A stretch of DNA of 30,838 nt from the IMG/VR virus record IMGVR_UViG_2917413769_000005. One strand, written 5' to 3'. The notes below the pieces were generated by a model. It did not search any database. It had not been told where the DNA came from and was given only the letters and a program-made list of their open reading frames with translations. Position 1 is the first letter of the stretch, and each line of letters starts with the position of its first letter. Of the stretch, positions 1 to 19,857 are shown one piece after another. The position numbers and the translations under genes are program-made. Source of the DNA: a virus (Duplodnaviria > Heunggongvirae > Uroviricota > Caudoviricetes).

Positions 1-384
1 TCACTCATCAGCGCCGCACTTATCTCTGTAGCTAGAAGGTACTGGCTCGCTAAATCGGGTATAGATTTTTTTATCTGTTACATAGTATGAAACGCCAGCT
101 GAAAATATACCTTTGGGTTTCATGCTGATTTTCATGATGAATGGAGAAAATCCTTCATAGGCTCCGAAGCCATTTTTTCCATTGATCTGGCCGCATACGT
201 AGCCAACAGTAGCGCCTTCCGATGATTGCTCAGTCTGAACAAATCTTAAATATCTAAATTTAACGCTATCTGGATCCCTAACGTCAGTTGCTATTTCCTT
301 CTTACCTAATTCAACTGCTTTTTCTGCGCTTGGCTTGCATCCAACGAGAGAAACCAAAGCCAGTATTAACAACACCTTTTTCAT
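1..384 (-). CDS. predicted lipoprotein, function unknown (possible moron or flanking host gene)
   Basis: 127-aa ORF; N-terminus MKKVLLILALVSLVGC is a type II signal peptide with lipobox Cys; ATG at 382-384 preceded by GGGATAGGGA; stop TGA at 1-3; visibly AT-richer than the phage genes. Confidence 0.55.
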   Translation of the reverse strand: MKKVLLILALVSLVGCKPSAEKAVELGKKEIATDVRDPDSVKFRYLRFVQTEQSSEGATVGYVCGQINGKNGFGAYEGFSPFIMKISMKPKGIFSAGVSYYVTDKKIYTRFSEPVPSSYRDKCGADE

Positions 385-509: not shown

Positions 510-758
510 TCAGAGAGCCAGATTAAGCTGGTCTCTGCCGTAATGTGATGCCGGGAAGGCATCGCGGGGGATGAAGTCAGGCGGTAGCGATGCAACACCT
601 GCGCGTTTTGTTACTTCCCTTTCCACACTGTTAAGCGTGGTGAATGACCGGCTACATTCCAGATTCTGACACTGGTGATATTGCCGGATTGTCATATCGG
701 TTATTTTACGGCTGGTACGTGTGCGGGCCATAGCGCCGCAAAATGGACATCTGAACAT
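510..758 (-). CDS. ogr: Ogr/Delta-type zinc-finger late transcription activator
   Basis: Translation MFRCPFCG...RTSRKITD...YHQCQNLECSRSF matches the Cys4 Ogr pattern; ATG at 756-758 with GGGGAG upstream; the ORF-track start at 791 has no RBS. Confidence 0.75.
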   Translation of the reverse strand: MFRCPFCGAMARTRTSRKITDMTIRQYHQCQNLECSRSFTTLNSVEREVTKRAGVASLPPDFIPRDAFPASHYGRDQLNLAL

Positions 759-797
759 AATGATGGCTCCCCTGTGGGAGTTGAACTCCATTTCATT

Positions 798-1934
798 TTA
801 TTCAGTTTCCGCGATCCAGTCAGGTATTTTCGCTTCCAGCTCCAGCCGGGTGGTAAAACCGCTGTCGTCTATGACGTGCTCAGCACGCGCAATGATCCAA
901 TCCTGATTATCTATTTCATCCTTAAAACCACTTACCGTGACGTGCATTTCCGGGTAAAGCTCAGCGCGGCCACGCGCCAGGGTGATCGAAAACTCTGCTG
1001 CGCCACGCTGAAGCTGTTGCCACTTTGCCGCCGCCGCACGTTTCGCCGCCTCTTCATTCTGGTAGGTTTTGCGCAGCACATAAACGTTACCGTCTGCGCC
1101 CTCCATGTAATCGCCCTCGCGGCTGCTGCTCTTCTCTTTTTTGGGCTTTGCAGGTTTGCGGCGCTTAACGCTGACCTTTTTCTTTTTGCCAAAATTCAGA
1201 TCCAGCCAGTAAGCCCGGACGCCGGTATAGGCATCCCGATCGGCAATACGAAAGCGATGCCGGTCGCCACTTGTGCGATCAATACTGGCAGAGGGGAGCG
1301 CCTTCCCGTCAGCGGTCACACCACCACCCGGCAGGATAAACAGCAGACTGCCGTTCTTGACGGTGGCAATTGCGCCCAGCATGTCCGCCATGCGAGTAAG
1401 GAATGACATATCGCTTTCCTGCGTCTGGTCGGCGTGATCAATCTCAATATCTATGAGCATTTCACTGATCTGCGCCTTCAGTCCGTAGCGGTGCGCTATT
1501 GCCGACACAACTCGCTCAACGGTCACGTCATGCCATGAGACTTCGCGCTTTACGTTGAATTCTTCACGAAAATCAGCGCTGCGGGCAGTAACGCCAATGG
1601 TATCTGCCGGGCCTTCGTGGGAAACCTCGTCAACCGTGTACAGCCCCTTGTAAATCAGCGGTTCACCCAGCCAGCCAAATGATACGGCAAGCTCAGCCCC
1701 GCGCGGCGGCAGTGCAACCATACCGTCACTGTCATCAATGGAAATAGATAGCTGATCAGCATCAAAGCCCCTGTTGTCCGTCAGTGACAACGACATGATC
1801 CGATCATCAAGCTGCGTCAGTACCTTGCCGCCCATCGTAATGTTGAATCCCGGACTTTTTACCGCTTCGGTCAGTGAATCGTTATAACTGCTGACTGCGT
1901 CGTTAAGTGATTTGGTCAGGTCTGTAAGTGCCAT
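798..1934 (-). CDS. D: tail protein D (late control gene D family)
   Basis: 378 aa with GDRHRFR..RDAYTGV and C-terminal LQRGAAEFSITLARGR..TRLELE pattern typical of P2 gpD; RBS AAGGGGGA before ATG at 1932-1934. Confidence 0.85.
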   Translation of the reverse strand: MALTDLTKSLNDAVSSYNDSLTEAVKSPGFNITMGGKVLTQLDDRIMSLSLTDNRGFDADQLSISIDDSDGMVALPPRGAELAVSFGWLGEPLIYKGLYTVDEVSHEGPADTIGVTARSADFREEFNVKREVSWHDVTVERVVSAIAHRYGLKAQISEMLIDIEIDHADQTQESDMSFLTRMADMLGAIATVKNGSLLFILPGGGVTADGKALPSASIDRTSGDRHRFRIADRDAYTGVRAYWLDLNFGKKKKVSVKRRKPAKPKKEKSSSREGDYMEGADGNVYVLRKTYQNEEAAKRAAAAKWQQLQRGAAEFSITLARGRAELYPEMHVTVSGFKDEIDNQDWIIARAEHVIDDSGFTTRLELEAKIPDWIAETE

Positions 1935-1987
1935 GCTTTCCCCCTTCTTCCGGCGAAGGATCCCACGCGCGCGGGAGATACCAAATC

Positions 1988-2016
1988 GGTTTTTGTTGTC
2001 ACCGTCCTGCCAGACC
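1988..2016. promoter_or_regulatory. conserved motif GGTTTT(T)GTTGTC-N9-CCAGACC in the divergent D/FI intergenic region; putative late promoter activator site
   Basis: Same motif with identical spacing recurs at 18035-18062 in the O/P divergent region; read on the minus strand it gives TCT-N12-ACA, close to the Ogr-site pattern TGT-N12-ACA. Confidence 0.4.
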
Positions 2017-2042: not shown

Positions 2043-3269
2043 ATGGGGGATTATCACTGCGAACTCAATAACGTAATGGTGGAAACTATGGCGGAAGATC
2101 GCTTTCATGGTGCCCGCATCCGGGAGAATACCGACCTTGTGGCGGCTATCAATGACATTGAATCGAATGTCATTGGGGTCGTCGCCGTGGCGGATGATGC
2201 CGATGCGGAAGCCTTTCCCCTGAATACCCCCGTGTTAGTGACGCGGGTTAACAACGTGCTGGGTAAGGCGGGTAAAACCGGCTCCCTGTACAAAACGCTT
2301 AAGGCCATCGCTGACCAGACCAGCCCGAAGGTGATCGTTGTGCGCGTGGCAGCAGCTACGGAAGAGGAAGGCGGTAAAACGCAGGCACAGCTTATCATGG
2401 GCGGCACGGCAGAAGACGGCAGCTATACCGGCATGTACGCATTCCTGACGGCAGAACAGAAGGTCGGCTATCGTCCGCGCATTCTGGCTGTGCCGGGATA
2501 CGACACGGAAGAAGTGACCTCCGCGTTGTGCGTCATTGCGCAAAACCTGCGCGCGTTTGTCTATGCCAGTTGTTACGGCTGTAAGACGATGGCGGAAGCC
2601 ATCACCTATCGCGCAACCTTCGCCTACCGCGAACTTATGCTTATCTGGCCTGATTTCATCGCCTATAACCCGCTGACCGGAGAAAACGAAACCTTCCCGG
2701 CCCCGGCGTATGCCTGCGGCCTGCGTGCGCTGATTGACAACAATCAGGGCTGGCATAAATCGCTTTCCAACGTATCAGTCAACAACGTGCTGGGTATTTC
2801 TCAGGATGTTTTCTGGTCGCTTCAGGCAGAAGACAGCGACGCGAACGAACTGAACAACAAGGAGATCACGACGCTCATCAAGCGTAACGGATTCCGGTTC
2901 TGGGGAAACCGCGTCACGGATACCAAAGATTACATCTTTGAGGTTTATACCCGTACCGCCCAGATTCTGGCTGACAGCATTGCGGAAGCGCAGTTTGAGG
3001 CCATTGACGAACCGCTTACCCCAGCGAACGTCAAGGACGTGGTGAGCGGTATCAGCGGGAAACTCAGCTCGCTGGTGACGCAGGGGCGGCTAATCGGCGC
3101 TGAATGCTGGTTTGATATCCTGGATAACCCGACAACCGGGCTTCGACAGGGTCAGGTGCGCATTCGCTATAAATATACGCCGGTTCCGCCGATGGAGGAT
3201 CTGACGATGTACCAGACCTTCACCGATGAATACTTTGAATCGGCGTTCTCTTCGCTGGGAGGTGCATAA
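2043..3269 (+). CDS. FI: contractile tail sheath protein
   Basis: 408 aa; N-terminal MGDYH and overall pattern (DADAEAFPLN, RAFVYAS, GFRFWGNR, YKYTPVPPMEDL) match P2 FI. Confidence 0.9.
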   Translation: MGDYHCELNNVMVETMAEDRFHGARIRENTDLVAAINDIESNVIGVVAVADDADAEAFPLNTPVLVTRVNNVLGKAGKTGSLYKTLKAIADQTSPKVIVVRVAAATEEEGGKTQAQLIMGGTAEDGSYTGMYAFLTAEQKVGYRPRILAVPGYDTEEVTSALCVIAQNLRAFVYASCYGCKTMAEAITYRATFAYRELMLIWPDFIAYNPLTGENETFPAPAYACGLRALIDNNQGWHKSLSNVSVNNVLGISQDVFWSLQAEDSDANELNNKEITTLIKRNGFRFWGNRVTDTKDYIFEVYTRTAQILADSIAEAQFEAIDEPLTPANVKDVVSGISGKLSSLVTQGRLIGAECWFDILDNPTTGLRQGQVRIRYKYTPVPPMEDLTMYQTFTDEYFESAFSSLGGA

Positions 3270-3785
3270 ATGGCGGTTCCCCACAAACTGCGCCTGTTCA
3301 CCTGCTTTGTGAACGGCAGCAACTGCATCGGCAAAGTCTCTTCCGTGACGCTGCCAAAGCTGACACGTAAAACGGAAGACTTTCAGGGCGGCGGGATGAT
3401 TGGATCCGCTGCGGTGGATCTCGGTCTGGACAGTGGCGCGCTGGATACCACGATGGTGGTTGGCGGTCTGGTTCAGTCGCTTCTGCTGAACTACTGCGGC
3501 GATATCGACGAGACCCGCTTCCGCTTCGCCGGCGAGTATTACACCGATGGTGAAAGCCTGCTGGTTGAGGTCGAACTGCGCGGCCGCATCACCGAAATGG
3601 ACGGCGGTGAAAGCAAGCAGGGAGAAGACACCTCCGTCAGCTACACGATGAAGAACACCTACTACAAGCTCACCATCGACGATAAGCCGTTGTTTGAGTT
3701 TGATCTGCTGAACTTCATCTACAAGAAAGACGGCAAGAATATCTACCCTGACCGCATTACGTCTGCGCTGGGAATGGGTAACTGA
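3270..3785 (+). CDS. FII: tail tube protein
   Basis: 171 aa; VTLPKLTRKTEDFQGGGMIGSAAVDLGLD matches P2 FII; starts directly after the FI stop. Confidence 0.9.
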   Translation: MAVPHKLRLFTCFVNGSNCIGKVSSVTLPKLTRKTEDFQGGGMIGSAAVDLGLDSGALDTTMVVGGLVQSLLLNYCGDIDETRFRFAGEYYTDGESLLVEVELRGRITEMDGGESKQGEDTSVSYTMKNTYYKLTIDDKPLFEFDLLNFIYKKDGKNIYPDRITSALGMGN

Positions 3786-3833
3786 TTAACCTGATAAGTG
3801 GCGGCACACCCGTGCCGCCCGGAGTATTCAACA

Positions 3834-4151
3834 ATGAGCAAAAAAAACGATAACGCCATTACGCTGGCAAAACCCGTTGTTCGCGGCGATGAGAAAATTA
3901 CTCAGGTAACGATCACTGATGAGATCAAACAGGCTGGTTCCCTGCGCGGGCTGAAGCTGGTTAACGTGATGAATATGGATGTGGATTCAGTAGCGATATT
4001 GCTGACCCGCGTCACGTCACCGCGCCTCAAACAAACCGAGATCAACGAAATGGATACCCGTGATTTTGTCAGCCTGTCAGAAGCGCTCGTCCCTTTTTTG
4101 ACGCCTGCGGGGTCTGGAGCATCGAACGAGGCGGAGACGGAGAATCAGTAA
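3834..4151 (+). CDS. E: tail assembly chaperone E
   Basis: ATG at 3834 (MSKKNDNAITLAKPVVRGDEK) with GGAG 9 nt upstream; contains slippery T_TTT_TTG at 4094-4100 near its 3' end as in P2 E. Confidence 0.8.
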   Translation: MSKKNDNAITLAKPVVRGDEKITQVTITDEIKQAGSLRGLKLVNVMNMDVDSVAILLTRVTSPRLKQTEINEMDTRDFVSLSEALVPFLTPAGSGASNEAETENQ

Positions 4152-4312
4152 CACTCCTGCGGTTCGACCTGATCGACGATCTGGTCGCTGATATCGCGGT
4201 TGTTTTCAACTGGCCGCCCTCTGAAGTCTTCACGATGGAACTGGGCGAAGTCATAGCCTGGCGTGAGCGGGCGGCTGTCCGAAGTGGAGCCAGTGACAGT
4301 GAAAAGCCTTAA
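3834..4312 (+). CDS. tail assembly chaperone E+E' fusion made by -1 programmed ribosomal frameshift
   Basis: Slippery heptamer TTTTTTG at 4094-4100; the -1 frame reads on through ...WPPSEVFTMELGEVIAWRERAAVRSG... to TAA at 4310-4312, overlapping the start of T. Confidence 0.6.
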
Positions 4313-6797
4313 TATCCGCGTCGCGTTCAGCGCGATCGATAAACTTACCCGCCCGGTCAATGCCGCCCGCCAGAGTGCGGGCGGTTTGTCTGAATCCCTC
4401 AAAAAAACGCAATCCAGCATTAAAGATCTGGACAGCCAGTCCCGCACGTTCAACCGTCTGCGCGACAGCGTACAAAAGACCTCTCGCAAAATTGACGAAG
4501 CCAGCCGGACGCTTGAAGGGCTGAATCAGGCGCAGCGGGAAGGTACACAGCTTACAGACAAGCAAAAAGCACATATGGCAGCACTGGCCGCAAAGCTGGA
4601 GCGCCTTAACTCTGCACGCACGCAGGAAATGGTTAAGCTGCGTGCTGCCTCACAGGCGCTGCGCAGCCACGGCGTTTCACTGGTCGGCAGTGATCGCACC
4701 ATTCAGAGCGCGATACGTCGAACCGAACAGTACAACCAGACGCTGGAGCGGGAACGGCGACAGCTTGCCGCTGTCACACAGGCACGGGCGCGCTATGACC
4801 AGATGCAGCAAACAGCGGGTAAACTTCGCGGCGGTGGCACGATGGCCGTTGCCGGGGCCACTGCTGCCGGTTACGCAGCGGGACGCTTCTTATCCCCCGC
4901 TGTTGGGTTTGACCGGGAAATGTCCCGCGTGCAGGCGCTGACCCGTATAGATAAAAGCTCAACAGACTTTTCAGCACTTCGTGAACAGGCCAAAAAGCTG
5001 GGCGCTGAAACGCAGTTCACCACGACTGACGCCGCCAGCGGGCAGGCGTTTCTCGCTATGGCCGGTTTCACTCCGCAGGCCATTCAGGCAGCACTGCCCG
5101 GCGTGCTCAATATGGCACTGGCCGGTGGCATGGATTTAGGTGAAAGCGCCGATATCAGCTCAAACATCCTGTCTCAGTTCCGCCTCGATCCCAAAGAAAT
5201 GGATCGCGTCAGTGACGTATTAACTGGCGCGTTCACACGTACCAACACCGATCTGCAAAATATCGGTGAGGCTATGAAGTACGCCGGGACAGGTCTTTCC
5301 AATCTTGGCGTCAGTGTTGAACAGACAACAGCCATGATCGGCGTGATGGCAAACGTTGGCCTGCGCGGGAGTATCGCCGGGACAGGATTACAGGCCGCGT
5401 TTTCACGCCTTGCCGCGCCAACCGGCAGGGCAAAAACCGCTCTCAAAGAACTGGGAGTAGACGTTGCTGATGCCACGGGGAAAATGCGCCCTGCTGAAGA
5501 GGTTCTCACTGAACTCTATAAAAAGATCAGCAAGTACGGCGATACCGACAAGCTCTCTTTCTTTAAAGATATCGCCGGTGAAGAGGCGTCAAAGTCATTG
5601 CAGGCACTGGTTATGTCAGCCGGGAGCGGCGAACTTCAAAAGCTGCTGGAAGCACTGAAAAACGCCAAAGGTGAGGCACAGAAAGCCGCCAAAATAATGG
5701 CGGATAACCTTGATGGCGATCTCAAGAATCTGGACAGCGCATGGGAAGGGTTTCGCATCCAGATTAACGATCTCGTCGATAACCAGCTTCGCGCCCTGAC
5801 TCAGGGGCTGAGTGATGTTGTGGGGAATATGACGCAGTGGGCGAAGGAGAATCCGAAGCTCGCTCAATCCCTGCTGGTTGTCGGCGGCAGCATTCTGGCA
5901 CTGACCGCCGCCATTGGCGGCACATCGCTGGCGATCGGCCTGCTGATGGGGCCACTGGCTAAACTCCAGTTAGGTTTTACCCTATTGACAGGGGGCGCAA
6001 CCGGAACAATCTCCGCCCTACGAACGCTCGGAACAGCTTCCGGCCCGGCAATGGCAAGTGTGCGCGGTTGGGGGCCTGTTCTCACATCAATGCTTAGTAA
6101 GCTGCGAGGCATATCGATCATCACGCCCGGCATTCGTGCCGGTCTTATGGGTGCGTTTCTTTCCCCAGGGGCTGCATTAGGATCTCTGTTCAAAAACATC
6201 GGAATGCTCGCTCTTCGCCTGACAGGCTTTACGACCATATGGAGCATTATCACGACCTCAGTATCTGTACTGGGTGCAGCGCTCTCACTTCTACTTAGTC
6301 CGATTGGTCTGATAGCGGCGGCTTTTATCGCTGCCGGATTGCTAATCTGGAGATTCTGGGAGCCGATAAGAGCCTTTTTCACCGGTTTTTTCAGCGGAGT
6401 TATGCAGCAACTGGCACCTTTCCGTGATGCCTTTTTCCCTTTGACGCTGGCCTTCTCAGCAATAGCCAAAGTCGTTGGTGAAGTCTGGGACTGGTTTGTA
6501 AAACTCTTATCACCTGTGGAAAGTAGCCGTGAATCCCTTGATAAATGCGCATCAGCAGGGGAAACATTCGGTAAAGTCCTGGGTAGCGCCCTTCAGTTGC
6601 TGCTATTACCTCTGACAACCCTCATGGAAGGCATTGGCTGGGTACTGGAAAAACTCGGCCTTATCCCTTCTGGTCTGGAAGCTGCACGCCTGAAAGCTGA
6701 AAGCCTTAAAAAAGACCCTGTTATGTGGGAGTGGGATCCGCAGCAGAAAAAAAATGGTGCAAAAGGGATGGAACTGGTCGCCAGTCTCATCAGGTAA
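4299..6797 (+). CDS. T: tail tape measure protein, N-terminal and main part (frame 0)
   Basis: Long coiled-coil-rich then hydrophobic Gly/Ala-rich protein typical of tape measure proteins; likely GTG start at 4299 (GGAG 9 nt upstream; alternative starts 4263-4293); frame ends at TAA 6795-6797 just after an A8 run. Confidence 0.8.
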   Translation: MKSLNIRVAFSAIDKLTRPVNAARQSAGGLSESLKKTQSSIKDLDSQSRTFNRLRDSVQKTSRKIDEASRTLEGLNQAQREGTQLTDKQKAHMAALAAKLERLNSARTQEMVKLRAASQALRSHGVSLVGSDRTIQSAIRRTEQYNQTLERERRQLAAVTQARARYDQMQQTAGKLRGGGTMAVAGATAAGYAAGRFLSPAVGFDREMSRVQALTRIDKSSTDFSALREQAKKLGAETQFTTTDAASGQAFLAMAGFTPQAIQAALPGVLNMALAGGMDLGESADISSNILSQFRLDPKEMDRVSDVLTGAFTRTNTDLQNIGEAMKYAGTGLSNLGVSVEQTTAMIGVMANVGLRGSIAGTGLQAAFSRLAAPTGRAKTALKELGVDVADATGKMRPAEEVLTELYKKISKYGDTDKLSFFKDIAGEEASKSLQALVMSAGSGELQKLLEALKNAKGEAQKAAKIMADNLDGDLKNLDSAWEGFRIQINDLVDNQLRALTQGLSDVVGNMTQWAKENPKLAQSLLVVGGSILALTAAIGGTSLAIGLLMGPLAKLQLGFTLLTGGATGTISALRTLGTASGPAMASVRGWGPVLTSMLSKLRGISIITPGIRAGLMGAFLSPGAALGSLFKNIGMLALRLTGFTTIWSIITTSVSVLGAALSLLLSPIGLIAAAFIAAGLLIWRFWEPIRAFFTGFFSGVMQQLAPFRDAFFPLTLAFSAIAKVVGEVWDWFVKLLSPVESSRESLDKCASAGETFGKVLGSALQLLLLPLTTLMEGIGWVLEKLGLIPSGLEAARLKAESLKKDPVMWEWDPQQKKNGAKGMELVASLIR

Positions 6798-7281
6798 AAA
6801 CAATAACGGGAATACACCCCCGCCCGGAACGCCGCAACCCACATCACCGCTGACCGGCGATAACGGCACTATGCGTCGATTGCAGAACATCGACAGCAAC
6901 ACCAAAGCGACAGCCGACAACACGAAGAAGATCGGCCCCGGCGATATTGTATTTAAAAACCTGCCGCGTGCTCTGGCCGTTCGTGGGGAATGGAAAGAAT
7001 CGCAGCTGGCCAGCACGGTCAGGAACAACGGGTTAAGCGCACGCCCCGCAGTGGTGGCGGCATCGCTTCCCGTAAAACAGGCGGAACTTCCGCCAGTCAG
7101 CCGCAGCGCCAACAATATACCGGTTGCCACTGGCGGCTTTACGGGAGAAATCCACGTACACCTGCACGGCGTTGACCGGCAGGACGCGCGCGAAATTGGC
7201 CGCATTGCTGCCGACGCGGTGAATGCCGAAATTGCCCGCCTTGCGCGGCTTAATCGCGGCAGTTTCAAAGACAGAGATTAA
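6754..7281 (+). CDS. tape measure protein C-terminal segment in +1 frame (frameshifted T or separate ORF)
   Basis: Frame open from 6694; fills the T-U gap where P2 has no gene; ends ...IGRIAADAVNAEIARLARLNRGSFKDRD right before the U RBS; frame change coincides with A8 at 6747-6754. Confidence 0.5.
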   Translation: MVQKGWNWSPVSSGKNNNGNTPPPGTPQPTSPLTGDNGTMRRLQNIDSNTKATADNTKKIGPGDIVFKNLPRALAVRGEWKESQLASTVRNNGLSARPAVVAASLPVKQAELPPVSRSANNIPVATGGFTGEIHVHLHGVDRQDAREIGRIAADAVNAEIARLARLNRGSFKDRD

Positions 7282-7295
7282 GGGGAGGCAACATT

Positions 7296-7784
7296 ATGAT
7301 GATGATATATGGGATGTTCGTTTTTGAACTGAAGACGCTGCCTTACCAGCAACTGCGCCACTCGCTGAACTGGCGTCATGTGAAGAATGATCGCATCAAC
7401 CGATCGGCAAAATGGCAGTACATCGGCGCAGGTGAGACGCAGATCAACCTTGATGGAGTGCTCTACCCTGAAATTACAGGCGGAGACGTATCTCTTACCG
7501 TGCTGGCAACGCAGGCATACACTGGGCGTCCGTGGCCTTTAATCAGCGGCGCGGGGCAGATTTACGGGATGTATGTGCTGACCGGACTACAGGCCACGCA
7601 TACGGAATTTGACCGCTACGGAAAGGCGAAAAAAATAGAGTTTTCGATCAGCTTCCAGCGCTGCGATGAAGACCTGCGCGAACGCCTGCAAGCGTCGTCT
7701 GTTGGCGATCTGCTTTCAGGGCTGAAGGATAAAGCCACGTCCGCCTATAATTCTGCCAGTAGTACGCTGTCGGGCCTGTTCTGA
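7296..7784 (+). CDS. U: tail protein U
   Basis: 162 aa MMMIYGMFVFELKTLPYQQLRHS...GVLYPEITGG pattern of P2 gpU family; strong RBS AAGGGGAGG 7 nt upstream. Confidence 0.85.
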   Translation: MMMIYGMFVFELKTLPYQQLRHSLNWRHVKNDRINRSAKWQYIGAGETQINLDGVLYPEITGGDVSLTVLATQAYTGRPWPLISGAGQIYGMYVLTGLQATHTEFDRYGKAKKIEFSISFQRCDEDLRERLQASSVGDLLSGLKDKATSAYNSASSTLSGLF

Positions 7785-7801
7785 CTGCACCCCATAAAAC
7801 T

Positions 7802-7826
7802 AAAGCGGGCTTTGCCCGCTTTATCT
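7802..7826. terminator. bidirectional rho-independent terminator between convergent U and G
   Basis: Perfect hairpin AAAGCGGGC-TTT-GCCCGCTTT at 7802-7822, flanked by T-runs on both strands. Confidence 0.7.
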
Positions 7827-7936
7827 TCCGGAACACACCGCCATAACTGACTGTGCTACAGCACCGTTAAAAATGACTGTACTCGATACGCACGGCCAGC
7901 ACGGTTATAACCGGCCATACGTGCCGGAATGAAAAC

Positions 7937-8533
7937 TTATTCCGGCTTATCCGGCCAGATGATATCCGGCGCTTTTGACGTGTCCACCGCCTGCACGGCT
8001 TTGATGTAGTGCATCCAGACGATCAGGCTAGTTTTATCTTCATCGCTGATAATGCCTAACTGTAGCTCCGTCTGCCAGAGACTGATCGTTGCCTGACCCC
8101 CACTCAATAACGCTGTTTTCTGTTGCTCTGCCGCTTCCACGTCCGCCGCGTGCTGCGCTTTGGTATCCGTCACCCACTCGCTACCGTTCCACGTATCGTA
8201 TGGCGTAGACGGTGCCAGCGTAGTGGTTTTTTCCGGATAATCACCCGGCGCAGTAATGGAAACCTCTTCACCTGTTTCAGTGCTGTATACCGTTTCGCCA
8301 CGATGATCAGCAACGTATTCCCACGCTTTCAAATCGGCTGTCCGGCAAATAGCCGAACCGGCTTTAGCCTCGCCCGGGGCGTCAGTACAGGAATTTGCGG
8401 GAAGACCTACTCCTATAGCCAAATACTCAACTGATGAAGAAAGGTATTCTCGCGTCTCGCCCTCGTAGTTAAACACTGTGATTTCACCTGCCACCGTGGC
8501 AATAAGTTCACTGTTTAATTTTGCCTGCGTCAT
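7937..8533 (-). CDS. G: tail fibre assembly chaperone
   Basis: 198 aa; C-terminal ...LWQTELQLGIISDEDKTSLIVWMHYIKAVQAVDTS..PDIIWPDKPE typical of tail fibre assembly proteins; ATG overlaps the H stop (TAATG). Confidence 0.8.
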   Translation of the reverse strand: MTQAKLNSELIATVAGEITVFNYEGETREYLSSSVEYLAIGVGLPANSCTDAPGEAKAGSAICRTADLKAWEYVADHRGETVYSTETGEEVSITAPGDYPEKTTTLAPSTPYDTWNGSEWVTDTKAQHAADVEAAEQQKTALLSGGQATISLWQTELQLGIISDEDKTSLIVWMHYIKAVQAVDTSKAPDIIWPDKPE

Positions 8534-9555
8534 TATGCGGCCCTCACAATGTAGTTAAACGCGACGTTACGTGGGCGTGTTTCCGCGCCGCCAGTATTGC
8601 CAACCCGGCCTTTTGTATGCAACGTAGGTGAAGCAATCAAAGTTCCGGGCGCTGCCGCGTCAATCCCTCGCCCTTGCACGTATGTTGATTTAACGATTAC
8701 CCCGATATCCCATTCATCCGTAGTATCGTAACCTTCATTTGCCACGATAATATGTCGGTGCTTTTCCAGCATTCCCAATTCTGTACTTAACAAACCCCGA
8801 CCAGAGTTGACACCGCGCCCATCATCCCAGCCCCGCAAAAATTCGCCTCGCAGATCTGGCAATTTGCCAGTTGAGTAAACTTTTGCCAGCTTCGGATATT
8901 TTGCTGTATCAAATGTTGCGCCGTTACACTTTAACCACCCCTCTGGAGGCGTTGCCTGCGGCCACGGAAGCGGAAAGCCCACAGGGATATATTTATCAAT
9001 ATCCGCTGTTTTGAGATATTGGGGGTGCGGGTCAGCGGCGGCAAGATGTGCGGCCAGTTGCTGATCCACATATGCCTTCACTTCAATAACGGCATCATCA
9101 ACATATTTACGGGTTGCCAGCACCACGGACGGATCGATTTTCAGCGTTACCGCCTCGGTACTGCTGACGATCAGGATTACGCGAATGACCTGCACGCGCC
9201 CGCTGCCTTCCTGCAACTGCGGTTTGTAGGTCTCAGCACAGTTGGCAACCGCAATCATATCGCCGTCTTTATCAAACAGGCCGATCTCACGGATCCACCA
9301 CCCGCCCACGTCTTCAGGTATAACCTGTTCCGCAATAATCTGATTGGTGTTTACGGGATCGATAGTCAGCATGTTCAGTTGCGCGCGGCGCAGCTCATGC
9401 GTCAGCGCGGTTTGTGCCGGGTTCGGTGTCGGCAGCACACCATTGCCATCACCCACGGCCATCTGGGTGATCTCAACCTTCGCACCCAATGCCGTGGCGT
9501 TTGCCAGCTTTGCCGCCCCGATGTTGGTTAACAGGGCAAAATATTTAGTCGCCAC
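8533..9555 (-). CDS. H: tail fibre protein (P2 H-like N-terminus, collar-type C-terminal domain)
   Basis: N-terminus ...NIGAAKLANATALGAKVEITQMAVGDGNG...GSGRVQVIRVILIVSS matches the P2 H anchor domain; C-terminus GWLKCNGATF...LPDLRGEFLRGW resembles the phage tail collar motif; GTG start at 9555 with GGAG upstream (ORF track gives 9576). Confidence 0.75.
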   Translation of the reverse strand: MATKYFALLTNIGAAKLANATALGAKVEITQMAVGDGNGVLPTPNPAQTALTHELRRAQLNMLTIDPVNTNQIIAEQVIPEDVGGWWIREIGLFDKDGDMIAVANCAETYKPQLQEGSGRVQVIRVILIVSSTEAVTLKIDPSVVLATRKYVDDAVIEVKAYVDQQLAAHLAAADPHPQYLKTADIDKYIPVGFPLPWPQATPPEGWLKCNGATFDTAKYPKLAKVYSTGKLPDLRGEFLRGWDDGRGVNSGRGLLSTELGMLEKHRHIIVANEGYDTTDEWDIGVIVKSTYVQGRGIDAAAPGTLIASPTLHTKGRVGNTGGAETRPRNVAFNYIVRAA

Positions 9556-10159
9556 TTGCGATCTCCACGGTATCAATTAAATGGACTGCCGCGCCGGTGT
9601 AGTCACCACCGCCCACGGATATGGTTTCCGGAAAATAAGGGTAAACGGTCAGCGTATCGCCGATATAACATCCCGCCCCGACTTCGATATACCCCTGCGA
9701 CTGAAGCGAAAGGGACAGGCCAGTCAGGTGGCGACTTCTCGGCTTTGCATCGTCAATAAGGCGCTCAAGCTCAAGATAGGTTTCCTCCGTAATCCCCTGT
9801 TCCTGAATACCGATTTCAAGCTTGAATGTTCCCGGTTCTTCGCCGCTTTGCCACCACTCGATCACGCGCAGCAGAAAGCCGAAAGGTTCAACGACGCGGC
9901 GCAAAGCGGAAATGGTGCCCTTCTGACGGTGAACCAGCCAGGAAGCTTTAATCACCTGCCGTTTAGTCTGTTCTGACCAGTTCTTATCCCAGCGGTCAAC
10001 AGACAGCGCCCAGGCGAGATAAGGCAGAAGATCAGCCGGACATTCGTCCGGGTTCCACAGCTTGCGCAGGTCAACAGGAATATCGGTAAGCCGTTCCGTC
10101 ACCTTCTCCGTACTGCGCATAAAACCGCTGGCCGAAGGCGGCAGCATGTTGTTATTCAT
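9545..10159 (-). CDS. I: baseplate assembly protein I
   Basis: ...LRKLWNPDECPADLLPYLAWALSVDRWD...VIKAS... matches P2 gpI; ATG at 10159 has a GGGGG RBS; overlaps the J stop. Confidence 0.8.
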   Translation of the reverse strand: MNNNMLPPSASGFMRSTEKVTERLTDIPVDLRKLWNPDECPADLLPYLAWALSVDRWDKNWSEQTKRQVIKASWLVHRQKGTISALRRVVEPFGFLLRVIEWWQSGEEPGTFKLEIGIQEQGITEETYLELERLIDDAKPRSRHLTGLSLSLQSQGYIEVGAGCYIGDTLTVYPYFPETISVGGGDYTGAAVHLIDTVEIASGD

Positions 10160-11048
10160 CGGTGCCCCCAGTCTCGATCGTGAAGGACTCACACCGCGCC
10201 GCCTGCGTATCGGCGATCACAATATCGCTGGCAGGCTCCAGCAGTTCTACCCTCTGCACGCCCTGAACATGCAGCGCCGCCATAATGGCTGAGCGGGCAA
10301 CGTCACGGCCAATCTTGCCCTGCTGATTCAGCCAGGACTGAAGCGCGTCCTGCGCGGCGGTATGGATTGGTTCAGACTCCGGGCCGGGGTAGAAATACAG
10401 CAGCGCATTGATCTGATAATTCACTATCTCCGCTGCCTGAACGGTCAGACGATCGGCAACGGGGCGCTTATCGTCAGCAGACAGCGCTTTATCCACCGTC
10501 GCCAGCAATTCCGCACTGGCAGTGCCGTCGCCTTCGGTGGACAGCACAGAGACCACCACCACGGCAGGCGACGGGCTGATCGCTTTGGCGTCCGCCACTT
10601 TGCCGCTGGCACTTTTGGCAAAATATTCATATGCGCCAGTTGGCCCCGCCACGCTTAGCCCTTCAAACGCAGCCTGCGCCCGCAAACGCAGTGCGGTATC
10701 ACTTTCCGTTACCGCGTCAGTAGTTGCCGTCTCCGGGTTGATGATCAGGCGTTCGGTGTTCAGGTTGCCCGCGAGATTATCAAGATCGGACGATACGGCA
10801 TGGCTCAACATGCACGCCGCCGCGCCATCATTAATCCGCTGCCTGAGCATCATTTCACGGTAGGCAACCACCTGGGCGATCACGTTCAGCGGTTCGGATT
10901 CCAGCTCCAGCGCGGCGGCAACAGAAACCTGCTGTTCCTGCGGGAATGCCGCCAGCATGACGGCTTTGACCTCGCTGAGAATGACTTCAAAGTCCAGCAC
11001 TTCGATAATTTGCGGCTGCGGTAGCTGCGATAAATCAACTGTTGCCAT
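10152..11048 (-). CDS. J: baseplate assembly protein J
   Basis: MATVDLSQLPQPQIIEVLDFE...RVELLEP...TGGTDE matches P2 gpJ; ATG 11048 preceded by CAGGAG. Confidence 0.85.
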   Translation of the reverse strand: MATVDLSQLPQPQIIEVLDFEVILSEVKAVMLAAFPQEQQVSVAAALELESEPLNVIAQVVAYREMMLRQRINDGAAACMLSHAVSSDLDNLAGNLNTERLIINPETATTDAVTESDTALRLRAQAAFEGLSVAGPTGAYEYFAKSASGKVADAKAISPSPAVVVVSVLSTEGDGTASAELLATVDKALSADDKRPVADRLTVQAAEIVNYQINALLYFYPGPESEPIHTAAQDALQSWLNQQGKIGRDVARSAIMAALHVQGVQRVELLEPASDIVIADTQAARCESFTIETGGTDE

Positions 11049-11403
11049 TGCTGCCACTCCTGAGCGTCAGCGCACTGCCTGCCGTCTGCATGGTTTCGGT
11101 GATAATGCCGACCAGTTCAGCGGTGACAACGCCATCCTTTGAATAACTGATATTGATGCCGTTCAGGGCAATACGCGGCTCCCACATCGTCAGGGCGATC
11201 ACCGCCGCACTCATACATTGCAGGCGCGTCACTTCGTTTTGCGGTTCATCCAGCAGATCGGGGATCATGCTGCCATAATCCCGCCGCATCACCCGGCTTG
11301 CCAGCGGCGTGGTCAGTATGTCGCGCACTGAATTCCACAGCTGATCGGTATCGGTAAGCTGGCCCGTGCCGTCCGGGTTCATGCCAATATAGCGGACTGT
11401 CAT
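11035..11403 (-). CDS. W: baseplate assembly protein W
   Basis: 122 aa MTVRYIGMNPDG...RVMRRDYGS... matches P2 gpW; ATG overlaps the V stop (ATGA). Confidence 0.85.
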   Translation of the reverse strand: MTVRYIGMNPDGTGQLTDTDQLWNSVRDILTTPLASRVMRRDYGSMIPDLLDEPQNEVTRLQCMSAAVIALTMWEPRIALNGINISYSKDGVVTAELVGIITETMQTAGSALTLRSGSNGNS

Positions 11404-11981
11404 TTCGGCCCCCCGGTGTTGCTGCTGCCACCCTGCACACCACTATGTACGTGCGAATGAACCGTCACCCCGTTAGACGTAAGCGATCCGCCAGAATGGG
11501 TAACATTGCCCTTCATCGTGCCGCCCTCCGACAGTTCGAACGTCCGCGCTTTCAGATGGTCGGTACATTCTACAATCGGTGTTTCAAGCGTGACGCTGGC
11601 AGAGGCTTTGATATGTGCTGTCTTCATGCCCTGCGCTTCCAGCGCGCTGGCTTCTGCGTCATAGCGGAAAGAGGCTCCGTCTGGCGCTGTCAGCACAATC
11701 TCTTTCAGGCTGCTGCCCGGCGCAGGGTTGTCACTGCTGTAGAGACTGCCGATAATGACCGCTGTTTCAGGGTTGCCACCGATACAGCCCAGCCAGACCT
11801 GCTCACCCACGGAAGGCGGCACCCAGATACTGAATGCTCCGGCGCGCGTGGTGTTCCAGCGCAGCCAGTCGGTCTGAAGCTCGCCGCTTTGCACGCGCAC
11901 GCGCCAGCTCTCTTCATCAACAGCAATAACGACGCCGACGCGGAGGATATTTTCCAGCAGGCGGATCAGTTCAGCGCTCAT
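11400..11981 (-). CDS. V: baseplate spike/assembly protein V
   Basis: 193 aa with ...WLRW...VGEQVW...G..THSGG..SNGVTVHSHVHSG... typical of P2 gpV; ATG overlaps the S stop. Confidence 0.85.
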   Translation of the reverse strand: MSAELIRLLENILRVGVVIAVDEESWRVRVQSGELQTDWLRWNTTRAGAFSIWVPPSVGEQVWLGCIGGNPETAVIIGSLYSSDNPAPGSSLKEIVLTAPDGASFRYDAEASALEAQGMKTAHIKASASVTLETPIVECTDHLKARTFELSEGGTMKGNVTHSGGSLTSNGVTVHSHVHSGVQGGSSNTGGPK

Positions 11982-12616
11982 CGTGCGGCACTCCCCAGGC
12001 TGTTAACCACCTGTTCCGTAATCATCCGCTCATCGCCAGCGGTAAAGCCCAGCAGCTCACGCACCGGATATTTAGCAAAGGCACCCGGCCCGACCTGATC
12101 GCGCTGGCCGTACTGGTGCACACGCGCAATGCGTGCCACCACACCGTCATAACCCACGGAAGTGCCGCCAGCATCAGCGCGCATTTTGAGAAAGCGATAG
12201 CTGCGCAGCCTCTGAAACATCGGCACTTTCTTTGCGGTGCTGCGGCGCACTGAGCGTGTATTGATCTCGATGTAACGCTCAATGTCGCTGCGGTAAAAGG
12301 TGCGAATATCGTTGCGCTCTTCGTCAAAGCCGGTAATGGTTCGCCCGTATTTTCCCCGGCCACCGTGCCAGTTTTTGAGGCGGCGGATCTCGCCCTGCCA
12401 GACAAACACAATGCCCTGTTGAGAACGTAGCACCCGGCGACGGCGGGCAGGATATGGCGAGCCTTCCGGGTTTTGCTGGGCTTTAATGCGCTGTTGCTGG
12501 CTCTTTCGCAGTGCCTGACCAACCGCGCGGGCGGTGCGAATACGTCCGGCCTGAGAGGTGCCCGCCAGTATGTCGCTGAAGACCTGATCCAGCTCACGGA
12601 AGAGATCGTTACTCAT
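11978..12616 (-). CDS. S: tail completion / virion morphogenesis protein (S-like)
   Basis: Sits between R and V as in P2; 212 aa; ATG 12616 with GGGAGG RBS, overlapping the R stop. Confidence 0.65.
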   Translation of the reverse strand: MSNDLFRELDQVFSDILAGTSQAGRIRTARAVGQALRKSQQQRIKAQQNPEGSPYPARRRRVLRSQQGIVFVWQGEIRRLKNWHGGRGKYGRTITGFDEERNDIRTFYRSDIERYIEINTRSVRRSTAKKVPMFQRLRSYRFLKMRADAGGTSVGYDGVVARIARVHQYGQRDQVGPGAFAKYPVRELLGFTAGDERMITEQVVNSLGSAAR

Positions 12617-13079: not shown

Positions 13080-13083
13080 GGCG

Positions 13084-14322: not shown

Positions 14323-14331
14323 GGCAACCTC

Positions 14332-14532
14332 TCAATCCCAAAGCTGCACCATCTCCCGCTGCGCTTTGCTCGCGATTTCCGGCAGTTCAATCTCCTGACC
14401 GGCATCAAGAAAAACCTGCTGGCTCAGTCCGGGATTGGCAGATAACACTTTTTCGGTCACGCCCTGGGTGGTGCCGTAGTGACGCCAGCAAAGCAAATCC
14501 ACCGTATCCCCCTGCAATGCCTTCACTTTCAT
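14332..14532 (-). CDS. X: tail protein X (LysM-like)
   Basis: MKVKALQGDTVDLLCWRHYG...VLSANPGL matches P2 gpX; start overlaps the L stop (TGATG). Confidence 0.8.
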   Translation of the reverse strand: MKVKALQGDTVDLLCWRHYGTTQGVTEKVLSANPGLSQQVFLDAGQEIELPEIASKAQREMVQLWD

Positions 14533-17130: not shown

Positions 17131-17967
17131 TCAGTAATCAGCCAGTTGCGCGTTAGCGCCACCGCTCGCGGGTTCCCGCTGGCTGAAATTGGCGTCTGTG
17201 CTTCCCAGCTTGCTGGTCAGCGCGGCAAGATCGGAGGTCAGCTTCTGGATGGCCTGGCTGTCCTGTTCGCGAGCGCGGCTCAGGTCGTTGAAGCTGTCCA
17301 GCAGATCGGCATGGGATTGGGCGACGTTCTCCACGGCGTCACGCACCTGGCTGAACTGCTCACCGTCAGATTTACGGCCTTTGCCGATAATCCCCATGAC
17401 GCGCCCGAACCACTGTTTACCTTCATCGCTGCGCTGCTCAGCCAGTTCGATAATTTCTGCCTCAATGGCATCGGTGAACAGCGGGGCTTCGCCCTGCTGA
17501 TTGTTGAATGACATAACCTGCTGACGCTGCTGCGCGGCAAATTTCAGGCGCTCGGTGCCGAGGCTTGCCGGGGTATCGGTCATCGCCAGCCCCATCACAT
17601 ACGCCTTGCCGTTAAGCGCAAACTGCGGGTGCAGTTCAATGCTGGAGTAAATTTTCTTGCCTTCATCCGTCAGCTTCTTCATGCGCTCAGAAGGTTCAAT
17701 TTCGGCGTAAAGCGCGGTGCGTCCGGCGAGCGGGCCTTCGCTGATATCTTCAGCACTCAGCGCCGTCACATCCCCCATAGCGCCGAAATCACTGCCGGGG
17801 AAAGGCGAAAGATAGTGCTCCACGTTGACGCGTGCGCCGTACACGTCCGGGCTGTAGTTTGCTGCTGCATCACGAAGGTGCTCAGGGCGAATCTCACGCC
17901 CGTCAACGGTGGCACCGGAGACAGCAACGCGGAATTTCTTACGGGCTGGTTTAGCTGCGCTAGCCAT
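17131..17967 (-). CDS. O: capsid scaffolding protein O
   Basis: MASAAKPARKKFRVAVSGATVDGREI... matches the P2 gpO N-terminus; ATG 17967 with AGGA RBS; ORF-track start 18003 lacks an RBS. Confidence 0.85.
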   Translation of the reverse strand: MASAAKPARKKFRVAVSGATVDGREIRPEHLRDAAANYSPDVYGARVNVEHYLSPFPGSDFGAMGDVTALSAEDISEGPLAGRTALYAEIEPSERMKKLTDEGKKIYSSIELHPQFALNGKAYVMGLAMTDTPASLGTERLKFAAQQRQQVMSFNNQQGEAPLFTDAIEAEIIELAEQRSDEGKQWFGRVMGIIGKGRKSDGEQFSQVRDAVENVAQSHADLLDSFNDLSRAREQDSQAIQKLTSDLAALTSKLGSTDANFSQREPASGGANAQLADY

Positions 17968-18034
17968 GTCGATAATCCTGTTGAGTGGTTTCTGTACGGC
18001 CATGATGGCAGAGCGTAACTTGCTGTCTCAACGA

Positions 18035-18062
18035 GGTTTTGTTGTCGGAGGAGGGCCAGACC
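18035..18062. promoter_or_regulatory. second copy of the GGTTTTGTTGTC-N9-CCAGACC motif in the divergent O/P late promoter region
   Basis: Identical spacing to the copy at 1988-2016; lies about 70-80 bp upstream of the minus-strand O start, as the first copy does for D. Confidence 0.4.
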
Positions 18063-18126
18063 ATAAAGGGGGCGATAGCGGGATCGCGCGCGGGGTAATC
18101 TTCACTCCATAAACGGTGGAGGGCAG

Positions 18127-19857
18127 ATGATACAGGACGCTTTTGTACGTCAGAGGGCAAAACAACTTTACTGGCAGGGCTACCCGCCAGCGGAGATCGC
18201 ACGCCTGATGGGGATTAATCAGAACACAATTTACGCCTGGAAGAAACGCGATGAATGGGATGAAACGCCACCCGTCCAGCGCGTCAGCCAGTCTATGGAT
18301 GCCCGCCTCATCCAGCTTACGGACAAAAAAGACAAGACCGGGGGAGATTTCAAGGAGATTGACCTGCTGACCCGGCAACTGAAAAAGCTGTCTGACGGAC
18401 AACCGGCAGGGGCTGGCACGGGCAAAAAGCCGCGCAAGCGCAAGCTGAAAAATCACTTCACCGAAGAACAGATCGTCGCGCTGCGGGAGAAAATACTTGA
18501 TTCGCTTTCGTGGCATCAACGCGGATGGTATGAGCAACGCCACCACCGAAACCGCATGATACTGAAGTCCCGCCAGATTGGCGCAACCTGGTACTTTGCA
18601 CGCGAGGCGTTGCTTGATGCGCTGCGCGACGATGTGAAATACCCGTACCAGCGCAACCAGATATTTTTGTCTGCATCCCGCCGACAGGCGCACCAGTTCA
18701 GGGGATTCATTCAGAAGATGGCGGAAGAGGTGGACGTTGAGCTTAAGGGCGGTGACAAAATCGTACTGAGTAACGGCGCAGAACTGCATTTCCTCGGCAC
18801 GTCCGCTGCAACGGCGCAGTCATATACGGGCAACCTGAAGTTTGACGAATTCTTCTGGGTCAGCAACTTCACCAACCTGCGAAAGGTTGCGGGGGCGATG
18901 GCAACGCTGAAGGGGCTGACACGTACTTACTTTTCCACACCGTCAGGCGAGACCCATGAGGCTTACCCGTTCTGGACGGGCGATCGCTGGAATGAGAAAC
19001 GCCCGAAGGCACAGCGCAAAGCGTTTGATGTGGGCTGGAAAACGCTGAACAGCGGCCTGCTATGCCCGGATAAAACCTGGCGTCAGATTGTCACCCTGAA
19101 GGATGTGATAGACCACGGCTGGGAGTATACCGATCTTGAAGAAATTCAGGATGAAAACAGTGAGGATGAATTCCGCAACCTGTACATGTGCGAGTTCGTG
19201 CGCGATGGCGAGTCAGCCTTCAACCTTAACGCCCTGATTGGCTGCGGGGCAGATGGTTACGACGAATGGCCGGACTGGAAACCTTTTGCGTCCAGGCCGA
19301 TGGGTAACCGCCCGGTGTGGATAGGTTATGACGCCAACGGCAGCAGCGGCAACGGTGACAGCGGCGCGATTTGCGTTGTGGTGCCGCCACTGGTGCCGGG
19401 CGGTAAATTCCGCACGGTGGAAACGGAACAGGTGCGCGGCCTTGAATTTGAAGAGCAGGCGAAAGTTATCGAAAACTTCACCTTCAAATACAACGTGCAG
19501 CATGTCGGCATCGACGTGACGGGCGGTAACGGTGAGGCCGTTTACCAGATAGTGAAGAAGTTCTTCCCGATGGCAATGCCCTACACCATGTCAATGACGT
19601 CAAAGCGCGCCCTGGTGCTGAAAATGCTACAGCTGATCCGCGCCGGTCGCTGGGAATATGATCGCAGTGAGCGCGCCCTGATCAACGCCTTTAACTCTGT
19701 TCGCAAGGTAAAGACGCCTGGCGGATTCATCACCTATGACACTGACCGCTCGCGCGGCGTCAGCCACGGTGATTTAGCCTGGGCGAATATGCTCGCCATT
19801 ATTAACGAACCGCTGGGCCAGGAGAGTGGCAGCGGCGGGTTTGCTATGGAGTTCTGA
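18127..19857 (+). CDS. P: terminase ATPase (large) subunit P
   Basis: 576 aa P2 gpP-like; RBS GGAGGG; stop overlaps the Q start (TGATG). Confidence 0.9.
   Translation: MIQDAFVRQRAKQLYWQGYPPAEIARLMGINQNTIYAWKKRDEWDETPPVQRVSQSMDARLIQLTDKKDKTGGDFKEIDLLTRQLKKLSDGQPAGAGTGKKPRKRKLKNHFTEEQIVALREKILDSLSWHQRGWYEQRHHRNRMILKSRQIGATWYFAREALLDALRDDVKYPYQRNQIFLSASRRQAHQFRGFIQKMAEEVDVELKGGDKIVLSNGAELHFLGTSAATAQSYTGNLKFDEFFWVSNFTNLRKVAGAMATLKGLTRTYFSTPSGETHEAYPFWTGDRWNEKRPKAQRKAFDVGWKTLNSGLLCPDKTWRQIVTLKDVIDHGWEYTDLEEIQDENSEDEFRNLYMCEFVRDGESAFNLNALIGCGADGYDEWPDWKPFASRPMGNRPVWIGYDANGSSGNGDSGAICVVVPPLVPGGKFRTVETEQVRGLEFEEQAKVIENFTFKYNVQHVGIDVTGGNGEAVYQIVKKFFPMAMPYTMSMTSKRALVLKMLQLIRAGRWEYDRSERALINAFNSVRKVKTPGGFITYDTDRSRGVSHGDLAWANMLAIINEPLGQESGSGGFAMEF

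Follow-up and report, generated by a model that had tools for sequence, protein, structure and literature searches.

Two predicted Ogr-family activator sites between divergent late genes of a P2-like prophage with an inverted tail-gene block

Late gene layout

The stretch of DNA analysed here, 30,838 nucleotides in length and called the window throughout, is a P2-like prophage; over its first 8 kb it shares 93% identity with Enterobacter phage phiT5282H (Peduoviridae, Novemvirus). Gene identities were assigned from open reading frames, Pfam domains and comparisons with P2 proteins. The genes, gene blocks and terminator relevant to late expression are the following:

510..758, minus strand: ogr homologue, an Ogr/Delta zinc finger (PF04606, E 6e-17)
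798..1934, minus strand: gene D, tail/baseplate hub (Pfam Phage_GPD; 48% identity with P2 gpD)
2088..3269, plus strand: gene FI, tail sheath (Pfam sheath domains; 48% identity with P2 FI)
2088-7784, plus strand: block of FI, FII, E, T and U
7801..7823: hairpin terminator, TAAAGCGGGC-ttt-GCCCGCTTTA, between the convergent ends of U (plus) and G (minus)
7937-17967, minus strand: block of G, H, I, J, W, V, S, R ... L, M, N and O
17131..17967, minus strand: gene O, capsid scaffold (Pfam Phage_GPO, E 2e-95)
18127..19857, plus strand: gene P, large terminase (Pfam Terminase_6N/6C/Terminase_5)
18127-20915, plus strand: block of P and Q

Compared with P2, the FI-U block is inverted in place, and D is separated from FI and reads away from it. 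The identical layout is annotated in phiT5282H, in Escherichia phage P88 (Xuanwuvirus) and in Klebsiella phage 3LV2017 (Reginaelenavirus), and it is therefore a trait of the lineage and no assembly artefact. Among the late genes only two gaps are divergent, D|FI (1935-2087) and O|P (17968-18126). The ogr homologue follows D on the minus strand after 39 bp and encodes a CX2CX22CX4C protein that is 48% identical to P2 Ogr. All relatives examined have it at this distance after D, among them P88 and 3LV2017, whose records leave it unannotated.

The start codon of FI differs from the one in the phiT5282H record, which uses an upstream ATG corresponding to position 2043. In the alignment of relatives the ATG at 2088 is conserved and the one at 2043 is not, and residue 19 of the long window ORF is where its match to P2 FI starts, opposite P2 residue 3. 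Because the P2 alignment begins there and only that ATG is conserved, the true FI start is, on these alignments, 2088. The FI transcription start predicted below, near 2061, requires a start codon at 2088 and not at 2043.

A motif shared by the two divergent gaps

A preliminary description of this prophage reported an identical motif in the only two divergent late intergenic regions. Both the positions and the placement hold when the plus strand is read again: GGTTTTTGTTGTC-N9-CCAGACC spans 1988-2016 in the D|FI gap, and GGTTTTGTTGTC-N9-CCAGACC spans 18035-18062 in the O|P gap. The motif is better called shared than identical, as its 13 specified bases are equal in both copies but its nine spacer bases differ. 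That description had proposed a motif scan of the whole prophage. Run on both strands, the scan finds exact matches to GTTGTC-N9-CCAGACC (13 specified bases) at 1995-2016 and 18041-18062 and nowhere else; allowing up to two mismatches adds no further copy in the window, and 100 dinucleotide-preserving shuffles contain no match. The motif is also the best ungapped 26-nt match in an unbiased comparison of the two gaps (1935-2087 against 17968-18126), with 19/26 positions equal; shuffled sequences gave a mean of 15.8 (sd 0.8), and one of 200 reached 19.

Read in register, the motif is GTTGT-N12-AGACC, a variant of the Ogr/B/delta activator dyad TGT-N12-ACA, which is the published consensus of the P2 late promoters (PMC3931495). 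On the minus strand the copies had been read as TCTGG followed by ten spacer bases and likened to this consensus. The likeness stands, but the spacer is nine bases: the reading is TCTGG-N9-GACAAC, or TCT-N12-ACA. The two dyads are:

1988..2016, plus strand: D|FI dyad, GGTTTTT-GTTGT-N12-AGACC (core TGT 1997-1999 and AGA 2012-2014, centre 2005.5)
18035..18062, plus strand: O|P dyad, GGTTTT-GTTGT-N12-AGACC (core TGT 18043-18045 and AGA 18058-18060, centre 18051.5)

Both sites fit TGT-N12-ACA with one mismatch each, the second half-site being off consensus with AGA in place of ACA. In more distant relatives (~76–80% protein identity), and also in 3LV2017, the corresponding positions of both gaps read GTTGT-N12-ACAAC, a perfect dyad. 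The strict consensus alone is uninformative, because an exact scan of the window returns four matches against 5.3 expected, none of them intergenic. P2's own late sites also deviate from the exact consensus. The sites of P2, whose annotation like that of 186 has an experimental basis, are GTTGT-N12-CCATC (pO/pP) and GTTGT-N12-CCAAC (pF), and those of 186 are GTTGT-N12-CCAGT (pV/p12) and GTTGT-N12-CCAGC (pJ). The family pattern is a strong GTTGT half with a degenerate nnAnC half 12 bp away, and the AGACC of the window fits it. With the motif class matching the annotated P2 and 186 sites, and an Ogr homologue encoded in the window, the earlier assignment to an Ogr-type late-promoter element is borne out at the level of prediction; the motif is a predicted Ogr-family activator site of the TGT-N12-ACA class.

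A third candidate site, the perfect dyad TGTTGTC-N6-TGACAAC at 1772-1791 within D, was rejected. Relatives alter synonymous positions in it (TTG to CTG, GAC to GAT, and others), and we treat it as a probable by-product of the coding sequence for SLSLTDN.

Promoter elements around the two sites

Candidate promoter elements lie on both sides of each dyad:

1957..1965, minus strand: PD extended -10, TG-g-GATCCT (hexamer 1962..1957, 43.5 bp from the dyad centre 2005.5)
1966..1973: (CG)4 run adjoining the PD -10 on its upstream side (~-23 to -16 relative to the predicted start)
2049..2054, plus strand: PF -10 hexamer GATTAT (43.5 bp from the dyad centre 2005.5)
18002..18010, minus strand: PO extended -10, TG-c-CATCAT (hexamer 18007..18002, 44.5 bp from the dyad centre 18051.5)
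18026..18031, minus strand: PO -35-like TTGAGA with an 18-bp spacer (sigma-70 scan; the CTCAACG block is conserved in the O|P alignment)
18085-18092: (CG)4 run before the PP -10
18096..18101, plus strand: PP -10 hexamer TAATCT (44.5 bp from the dyad centre 18051.5)

From these -10 elements we derive four predicted transcription starts, near 1950 for D (minus), 2061 for FI (plus), 17995 for O (minus) and 18108 for P (plus); the FI start would lie 27 nt before the start codon at 2088. The preliminary description put the motif about 70–80 bp upstream of the D and O start codons, which is roughly right; measured from the dyad centres, the distances are 71.5 bp to the D ATG and 84.5 bp to the O ATG. 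More informative is the interval between dyad centre and predicted transcription start, ~55–56 bp on both sides. The placement of the hexamers relative to the dyads, at 43.5, 43.5, 44.5 and 44.5 bp, is as in P2, where both -10 hexamers, placed from the mapped starts, are 43.5 bp away from the centre. Each gap is symmetric about its dyad, D|FI at 43.5 bp and O|P at 44.5 bp, and both sites stand in front of late morphogenetic operons.

The -35 regions of three of the candidate promoters, judged by eye, are poor (TTTGGT for PD, GTGAGT for PF, AGCGGG for PP). For PO, the sigma-70 scan returns TTGAGA-18-TGcCATCAT, which matches the consensus at 9/12 positions and has the TG in addition; this fair -35 might allow some transcription independent of the activator. 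The D-side hexamer GATCCT equals TATAAT at 3/6 positions. PD could also be independent of Ogr, as extended -10 promoters can act without an activator. We considered whether PD derives from a duplication of the PP half-promoter. Both halves have (CG)4 before the -10, little is shared beyond that, and the dyad orientation is opposite.

Conservation among relatives

Conservation was assessed on 80 loci encoding D relatives (504 viral contigs encode D) and 80 loci encoding O relatives. An alignment of the D|FI gap from 13 diverged relatives has a mean column identity of 58%. Within its dyad, GTTGT, A2012 and A2014 are invariant and C2016 is nearly so. The invariant columns of the -10 elements are the TG, A2 and T6 on the D side and A2, A5 and T6 on the FI side, and the further invariant columns are part of the CG run and a few leader bases. 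All relatives compared retain an alternating CG-rich block ahead of the PD -10. In the alignment of related O|P intergenic regions, ATCA and the T of the TG are invariant in PO, and the TAATCT of PP is nearly invariant.

The spacing is conserved more widely. All 62 distinct D|FI sequences have a TGn-NAnnnT element on the D side, at 43.5 bp from the dyad centre in 60 and at 44.5 bp in the other two, and all 62 have an NAnnnT hexamer at 43.5 bp on the FI side. Of 66 distinct O|P sequences, 63 carry the two elements at 44.5 bp, with a single one of these at 43.5 bp on the O side. Among the same relatives the leaders differ in length and sequence, and the fixed distance from dyad to hexamer therefore looks selected; in part, conservation of spacing among related sequences is inherited and not independently selected. 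The D-side element reads TGcGACCAT in P88 and TGaAACCAT in 3LV2017, and a divergent D|FI gap with a dyad and a D-side TGn-extended -10 occurs in three genera of Peduoviridae. A direct alignment of the P2 O|P region with those of the relatives broke down in the middle, because the P2 site is flipped and diverged, and geometry was compared instead.

The second half-site varies between genomes and tends to be the same at both sites of one genome. It is AGACC at both sites in the window, in phiT5282H and in several viral contigs, one of which (loci L040/L121) also shares the preceding T between its two sites; AGAAC at both sites in P88; and ACAAC at both sites in 3LV2017 and at the locus pairs L050/L124 and L054/L131. 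An exception is the pair L045/L122, with AGACC at D|FI and AGAAT at O|P, which differ in the last two bases. Half-sites that change together within genomes are expected if one protein reads both sites. The Ogr residues after the second cysteine pair run, by group, CSRS/CSES, CGVC/CGVG and CSIT/CGLS. With few independent lineages, this co-variation of half-site and Ogr residues is a lead only.

A proposed late regulatory circuit

We consider it likely that the two motif copies are Ogr-family activator sites, each lying midway between two back-to-back late promoters and activating both. The preliminary description had proposed them as promoters of D and O. The D and O sides do have -10 elements, but each dyad lies midway between divergent -10s and so also faces FI and P. 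Each is read as one site shared by two promoters, as in the annotation of the P2 (pO/pP) and 186 (pV/p12) records. From the sequence we infer Ogr binding, the transcription starts, Ogr dependence and the two-way use of the sites. D very likely has its own late promoter, given the invariant extended -10 on its side (TGnNAnnnT), and the sites most likely also serve the plus-strand operons FI-FII-E-T-U and P-Q, which they probably already did in ancestral phages, as PF and PP. The earlier proposal that D is expressed independently after the inversion is still the best reading, with a conserved promoter-like element correctly placed from the site and facing D.

In the circuit that we propose, following P2, 186 and P4, an activator bound ~55 bp upstream of the start would recruit RNA polymerase to promoters with a usable -10 and a poor -35, and a near-dyad site could act in both directions. 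Late promoters of this class in P2-like phages and P4 need the activator and the RNA polymerase alpha subunit (rpoA109 phenotype). As in P2 and 186, the copy at 18035-18062 would drive PP, for P and Q on the plus strand, and PO, for O, N, M ... S, V ... G on the minus strand. The copy at 1988-2016 would drive PF (plus strand: FI, FII, E, T, U) and the D-ogr promoter (minus strand). The FI-U inversion would have cut D off from PF, and D would use the other face of the same site through TGgGATCCT. In time, ogr would be expressed first from a promoter of its own, and Ogr would then activate PD/PF and PO/PP from the two sites. Read-through from PD into ogr would add positive feedback on top of ogr's own promoter; in P2, read-through from PF likewise adds to ogr expression.

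The candidate for ogr's own promoter is:

795..823, minus strand: candidate ogr promoter CTGACT-17-TAAAAT (sigma-70 scan), overlapping the D stop codon and the end of D

Relatives retain a -10 of the form TAnAAT or CATAAT ahead of ogr, including those with a shifted D stop codon. The P2 hexamer at this location is TAAAAT, and the P2 record has annotated -35 and -10 signals in the interval from D to ogr.

A site of the PV type was sought upstream of V; no dyad there scores 8/10 or better, and S and V overlap. From that overlap and the lack of a dyad upstream of V, the genes from O to G would probably form one operon of ~10 kb. It probably ends, like the FI-U operon, at the hairpin at 7801-7823. 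Within V, a TTGT-N12-AGA at 11680-11698 was rejected as a candidate, occurring at chance frequency (six seen, ~7.5 expected by our own calculation).

These parts can be joined into one account, in which the inversion made a one-way PF site two-way, the late regulon consists of two Ogr sites and four promoters with no V promoter, D and ogr form a minimal feedback operon, and the half-site co-varies with Ogr residues. This joint account is tentative; we regard it as possible, and lean against every part of it being right at once.

Alternative explanations

The two-way use of the sites is where another reading comes closest. The sites could be one-way, acting as PF and PP for the plus-strand operons only, with D and possibly O transcribed from adjacent extended -10 promoters that are independent of the activator. 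P2 PF and 186 pJ are indeed one-way promoters, and the TGn-extended -10 elements on the D and O sides, with TTGAGA as a -35 for O in addition, can bypass an activator. The P2 and 186 records, however, annotate an O-side promoter that shares its site with the P-side promoter, and the D-side -10 stands at a fixed 43.5 bp, mirroring the FI side, in 60/62 sequences despite variable leaders. GATCCT is moreover a poor hexamer for unaided transcription, and D is a late structural gene, for which co-regulation with the other tail genes is expected. One-way sites are thus, in our view, unlikely, though they deserve some weight. Binding of the motif by another regulator (the immunity repressor, Cox or a host factor) in place of the Ogr homologue would account for a second half-site of AGACC against CCAnC in P2 and 186, and Ogr binding is deduced. 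But the annotated Ogr/B sites of P2 and 186 agree with the motif in position, in the GTTGT half, in the N12 spacing and in how far the -10 lies from the site, and the early and immunity regions of the window hold no copy of the motif; we consider a different regulator very unlikely.

One copy of the motif lies at an inversion breakpoint, the D|FI junction, as a recombination scar or an invertase or crossover site of the FI-U inversion would. Such an origin is contradicted by the second copy, which lies at O|P, and by the other breakpoint, U|G (7785-7936), which has none. The copies are also direct repeats and not inverted ones; conservation of the O|P copy extends to many further relatives, in which the O|P region was compared; and P2 and 186, which are colinear, carry a site of the same class (GTTGT-N12-CCAnC) at their O|P junction. 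A functionless chance similarity is excluded by the shuffle statistics and the conservation. We therefore give a scar or a chance repeat hardly any credence, and retain Ogr-family activation of two back-to-back promoters from each site as the preferred reading.

Implications

Activation from two shared sites would give a coherent regulatory map for widespread P2-like prophages of Enterobacter, Klebsiella, Escherichia and relatives with rearranged tail genes, in which four late promoters share two activator sites and D, no longer part of the F operon, is transcribed with ogr. With a near-symmetric site, a gene stranded by an inversion could regain co-regulation by gaining merely a -10 element. 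On the practical side, the analysis corrects the start codon that the phiT5282H record gives for FI, and it locates ogr genes that two phage records leave without annotation. If true, the co-variation of half-sites and Ogr residues would offer a starting point for working out how zinc fingers of the Ogr family recognise DNA.

Comparison with known systems

Among relatives with the inverted FI-U block, the D|FI gaps of phiT5282H, P88 and 3LV2017 resemble that of the window in having the dyad, a D-side TGn-extended -10 and ogr directly after D. They differ in their half-site variants (AGACC, AGAAC and ACAAC), and their promoters are unannotated in the records. A literature search found no publications on the late promoters of phiT5282H, its genus or P88.

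In satellite phage P4, the sites of the late promoters Psid and PLL are of the same TGT-N12-ACA class, centred ~55 bp upstream and read by an Ogr-family zinc-finger protein. These promoters are bound by the Delta protein, as Julien and Calendar reportedly described in 1995, in a paper cited by PMC3931495, which gives the consensus. P4 is a different element with a different activator, and the likeness drawn here is one of site class.

The record of phage 186 (NC_001317) lists B-protein sites at 3798-3817 (pV and p12) and 14091-14110 (pJ). These protein_bind features, GTTGT-N12-CCA, have the same form as the sites of the window; one is common to the divergent head promoters, and the other precedes the gene for the tail sheath. 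In 186, however, pJ acts one-way, with D the last gene of its operon, whereas the sheath site of the window also faces D. The P2 PF promoter has its activator site at 17555-17583 and starts at 17626-17628. That site precedes FI and has its weaker half nearer to FI and its GTTGT half farther away, the orientation also seen at 1995-2016 in the window. In P2, FI through D form one operon, whereas in the window D is unreachable from PF and has a -10 of its own on the opposite side.

The closest counterpart of the O|P site is annotated in the P2 record (NC_001895), where a single activator site named 'pO, pP promoters' spans 3057-3087; the mapped starts, 3016 (minus) and 3127 (plus), are each 55.5 bp away from the centre of the dyad. 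Both sites lie between the O and P homologues, midway between two divergent starts (mapped in P2, predicted in the window), and have a GTTGT half, a 12-bp spacer and a weaker second half, and in both phages Ogr is encoded next to D. The differences are in detail: the -10s are 43.5 bp from the centre in P2 and 44.5 bp in O|P of the window; the second half is CCATC in P2 and AGACC in the window; the GTTGT half faces P in P2 and O in the window; and the O side of the window has a candidate extended -10 and a TTGAGA -35. The element class and the sharing of one site by two promoters are thus already documented for P2 and 186, and the proposed promoter facing D reuses these parts in a rearrangement specific to this lineage, without a new mechanism.

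Two proposed activator sites for the late genes

Two activator sites appear to run all late genes in the window lineage: the predicted Ogr-type dyads, GTTGT-N12-AGACC, between D and FI (1988–2016) and between O and P (18035–18062). This reading follows from an overlap of S and V at 11978–11981 together with the lack of any dyad upstream of V; no P2-type V promoter was found in the late region of the window. S and V are likewise contiguous in Escherichia phage P88 and Klebsiella phage 3LV2017, relatives with the same inverted FI–U layout. One further element lies where U and G converge, between their ends:

7801–7823, strong hairpin TAAAGCGGGC-ttt-GCCCGCTTTA

The hairpin is likely a two-way terminator marking the other FI–U inversion breakpoint.

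The second half-site (2012–2016 and 18058–18062) co-varies between both sites of one genome, reading AGACC, AGAAC or ACAAC; the exception is one contig pair, L045/L122, whose two loci are unlike in the last two bases. It also co-varies with residues 36–39 of Ogr, the zinc-finger late activator homologue, where the variants after the second Cys pair are CSRS or CSES, CGVC or CGVG, and CSIT or CGLS. As this pattern comes from few independent lineages, we treat the co-variation of half-site and Ogr residues as a lead only.

A third dyad lies inside D, at a distance of 224 bp from the one between D and FI:

1772–1791, perfect extended dyad TGTTGTC-N6-TGACAAC (TGT-N12-ACA, arms GTTGTC/GACAAC), within the D coding sequence

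Because changes at synonymous codon positions abolish this dyad in relatives, it is probably a by-product of coding rather than a conserved site. Ogr might nonetheless bind it in the window phage.

The ogr gene and its surroundings

The ogr gene (510–758, minus strand) lies directly downstream of D, and three features surround it:

795–823, minus strand, candidate ogr promoter CTGACT-17-TAAAAT, overlapping the D stop codon
777–789, small hairpin GGAGT-TCA-ACTCC in the ogr leader, after the candidate promoter
1–384, minus strand, ORF following ogr in the same orientation

The GAGTTCAAC core of the leader hairpin is retained in most relatives examined. The ORF at 1–384 has no match in Pfam; its N-terminus, MKKVLLILALVSLVGC, is a lipoprotein-type signal sequence, and the ORF may be a lysogenic-conversion gene.

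Clear homologues of ogr are unannotated in the published records of P88 (NC_026014, our locus L165) and 3LV2017 (NC_047817, L166), where they directly follow D (D itself ends at 34433 and 33234, respectively). Their products begin MFRCPLCG and MFKCPICG and carry a CX2C...CX4C zinc-finger motif. In the record of Enterobacter phage phiT5282H, the FI start is placed at an upstream ATG that relatives do not conserve.

The tape-measure gene

Gene T, encoding the tape-measure protein, occupies two overlapping ORFs:

4263–6797, first T ORF
6754–7281, second T ORF

In phiT5282H, by contrast, T is a single protein of 988 aa. Since the second ORF shares 94% identity with its C-terminal residues 833–988, the comparison indicates a frameshift in the window T near 6754–6797. 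The prophage may be defective, the frameshift may be a sequencing error, or slippage may be programmed there.

Short blocks at the predicted late promoters and leaders

Several short blocks accompany the predicted late promoters and leaders:

1966–1973, (CG)4 run directly upstream of the D-side promoter −10
18085–18092, (CG)4 run directly upstream of the P-side promoter −10
1959–1962, GATC (Dam) site that is part of a BamHI site and overlaps the −10 hexamer (GATCCT) on the D side
18082–18085, GATC (Dam) site abutting the (CG)4 run of the P-side promoter
2061–2068, plus strand, GAACTCAA at the start of the predicted FI leader
17980–17988, minus strand, element CCACTCAAC within the O leader

The (CG)4 runs fall at about −23 to −16 relative to the predicted D-side and P-side starts; the FI-side and O-side promoters have no (CG)4 directly upstream of the −10. 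Across genera, relatives keep an alternating CG-rich block at each of these two positions; the GATC sites are kept in closer relatives only. A Dam-like methyltransferase is encoded by phiT5282H.

In relatives, GAACTCAAC lies exactly at the predicted O start. The FI and O leader sequences may represent a common leader or initial-transcribed motif. At the position equivalent to the (CG)4 block, the P2 pP promoter carries CGCGGGGCGCG, and the P2 FI leader contains CCACTCA, which can be compared with GAACTCAA of the window.
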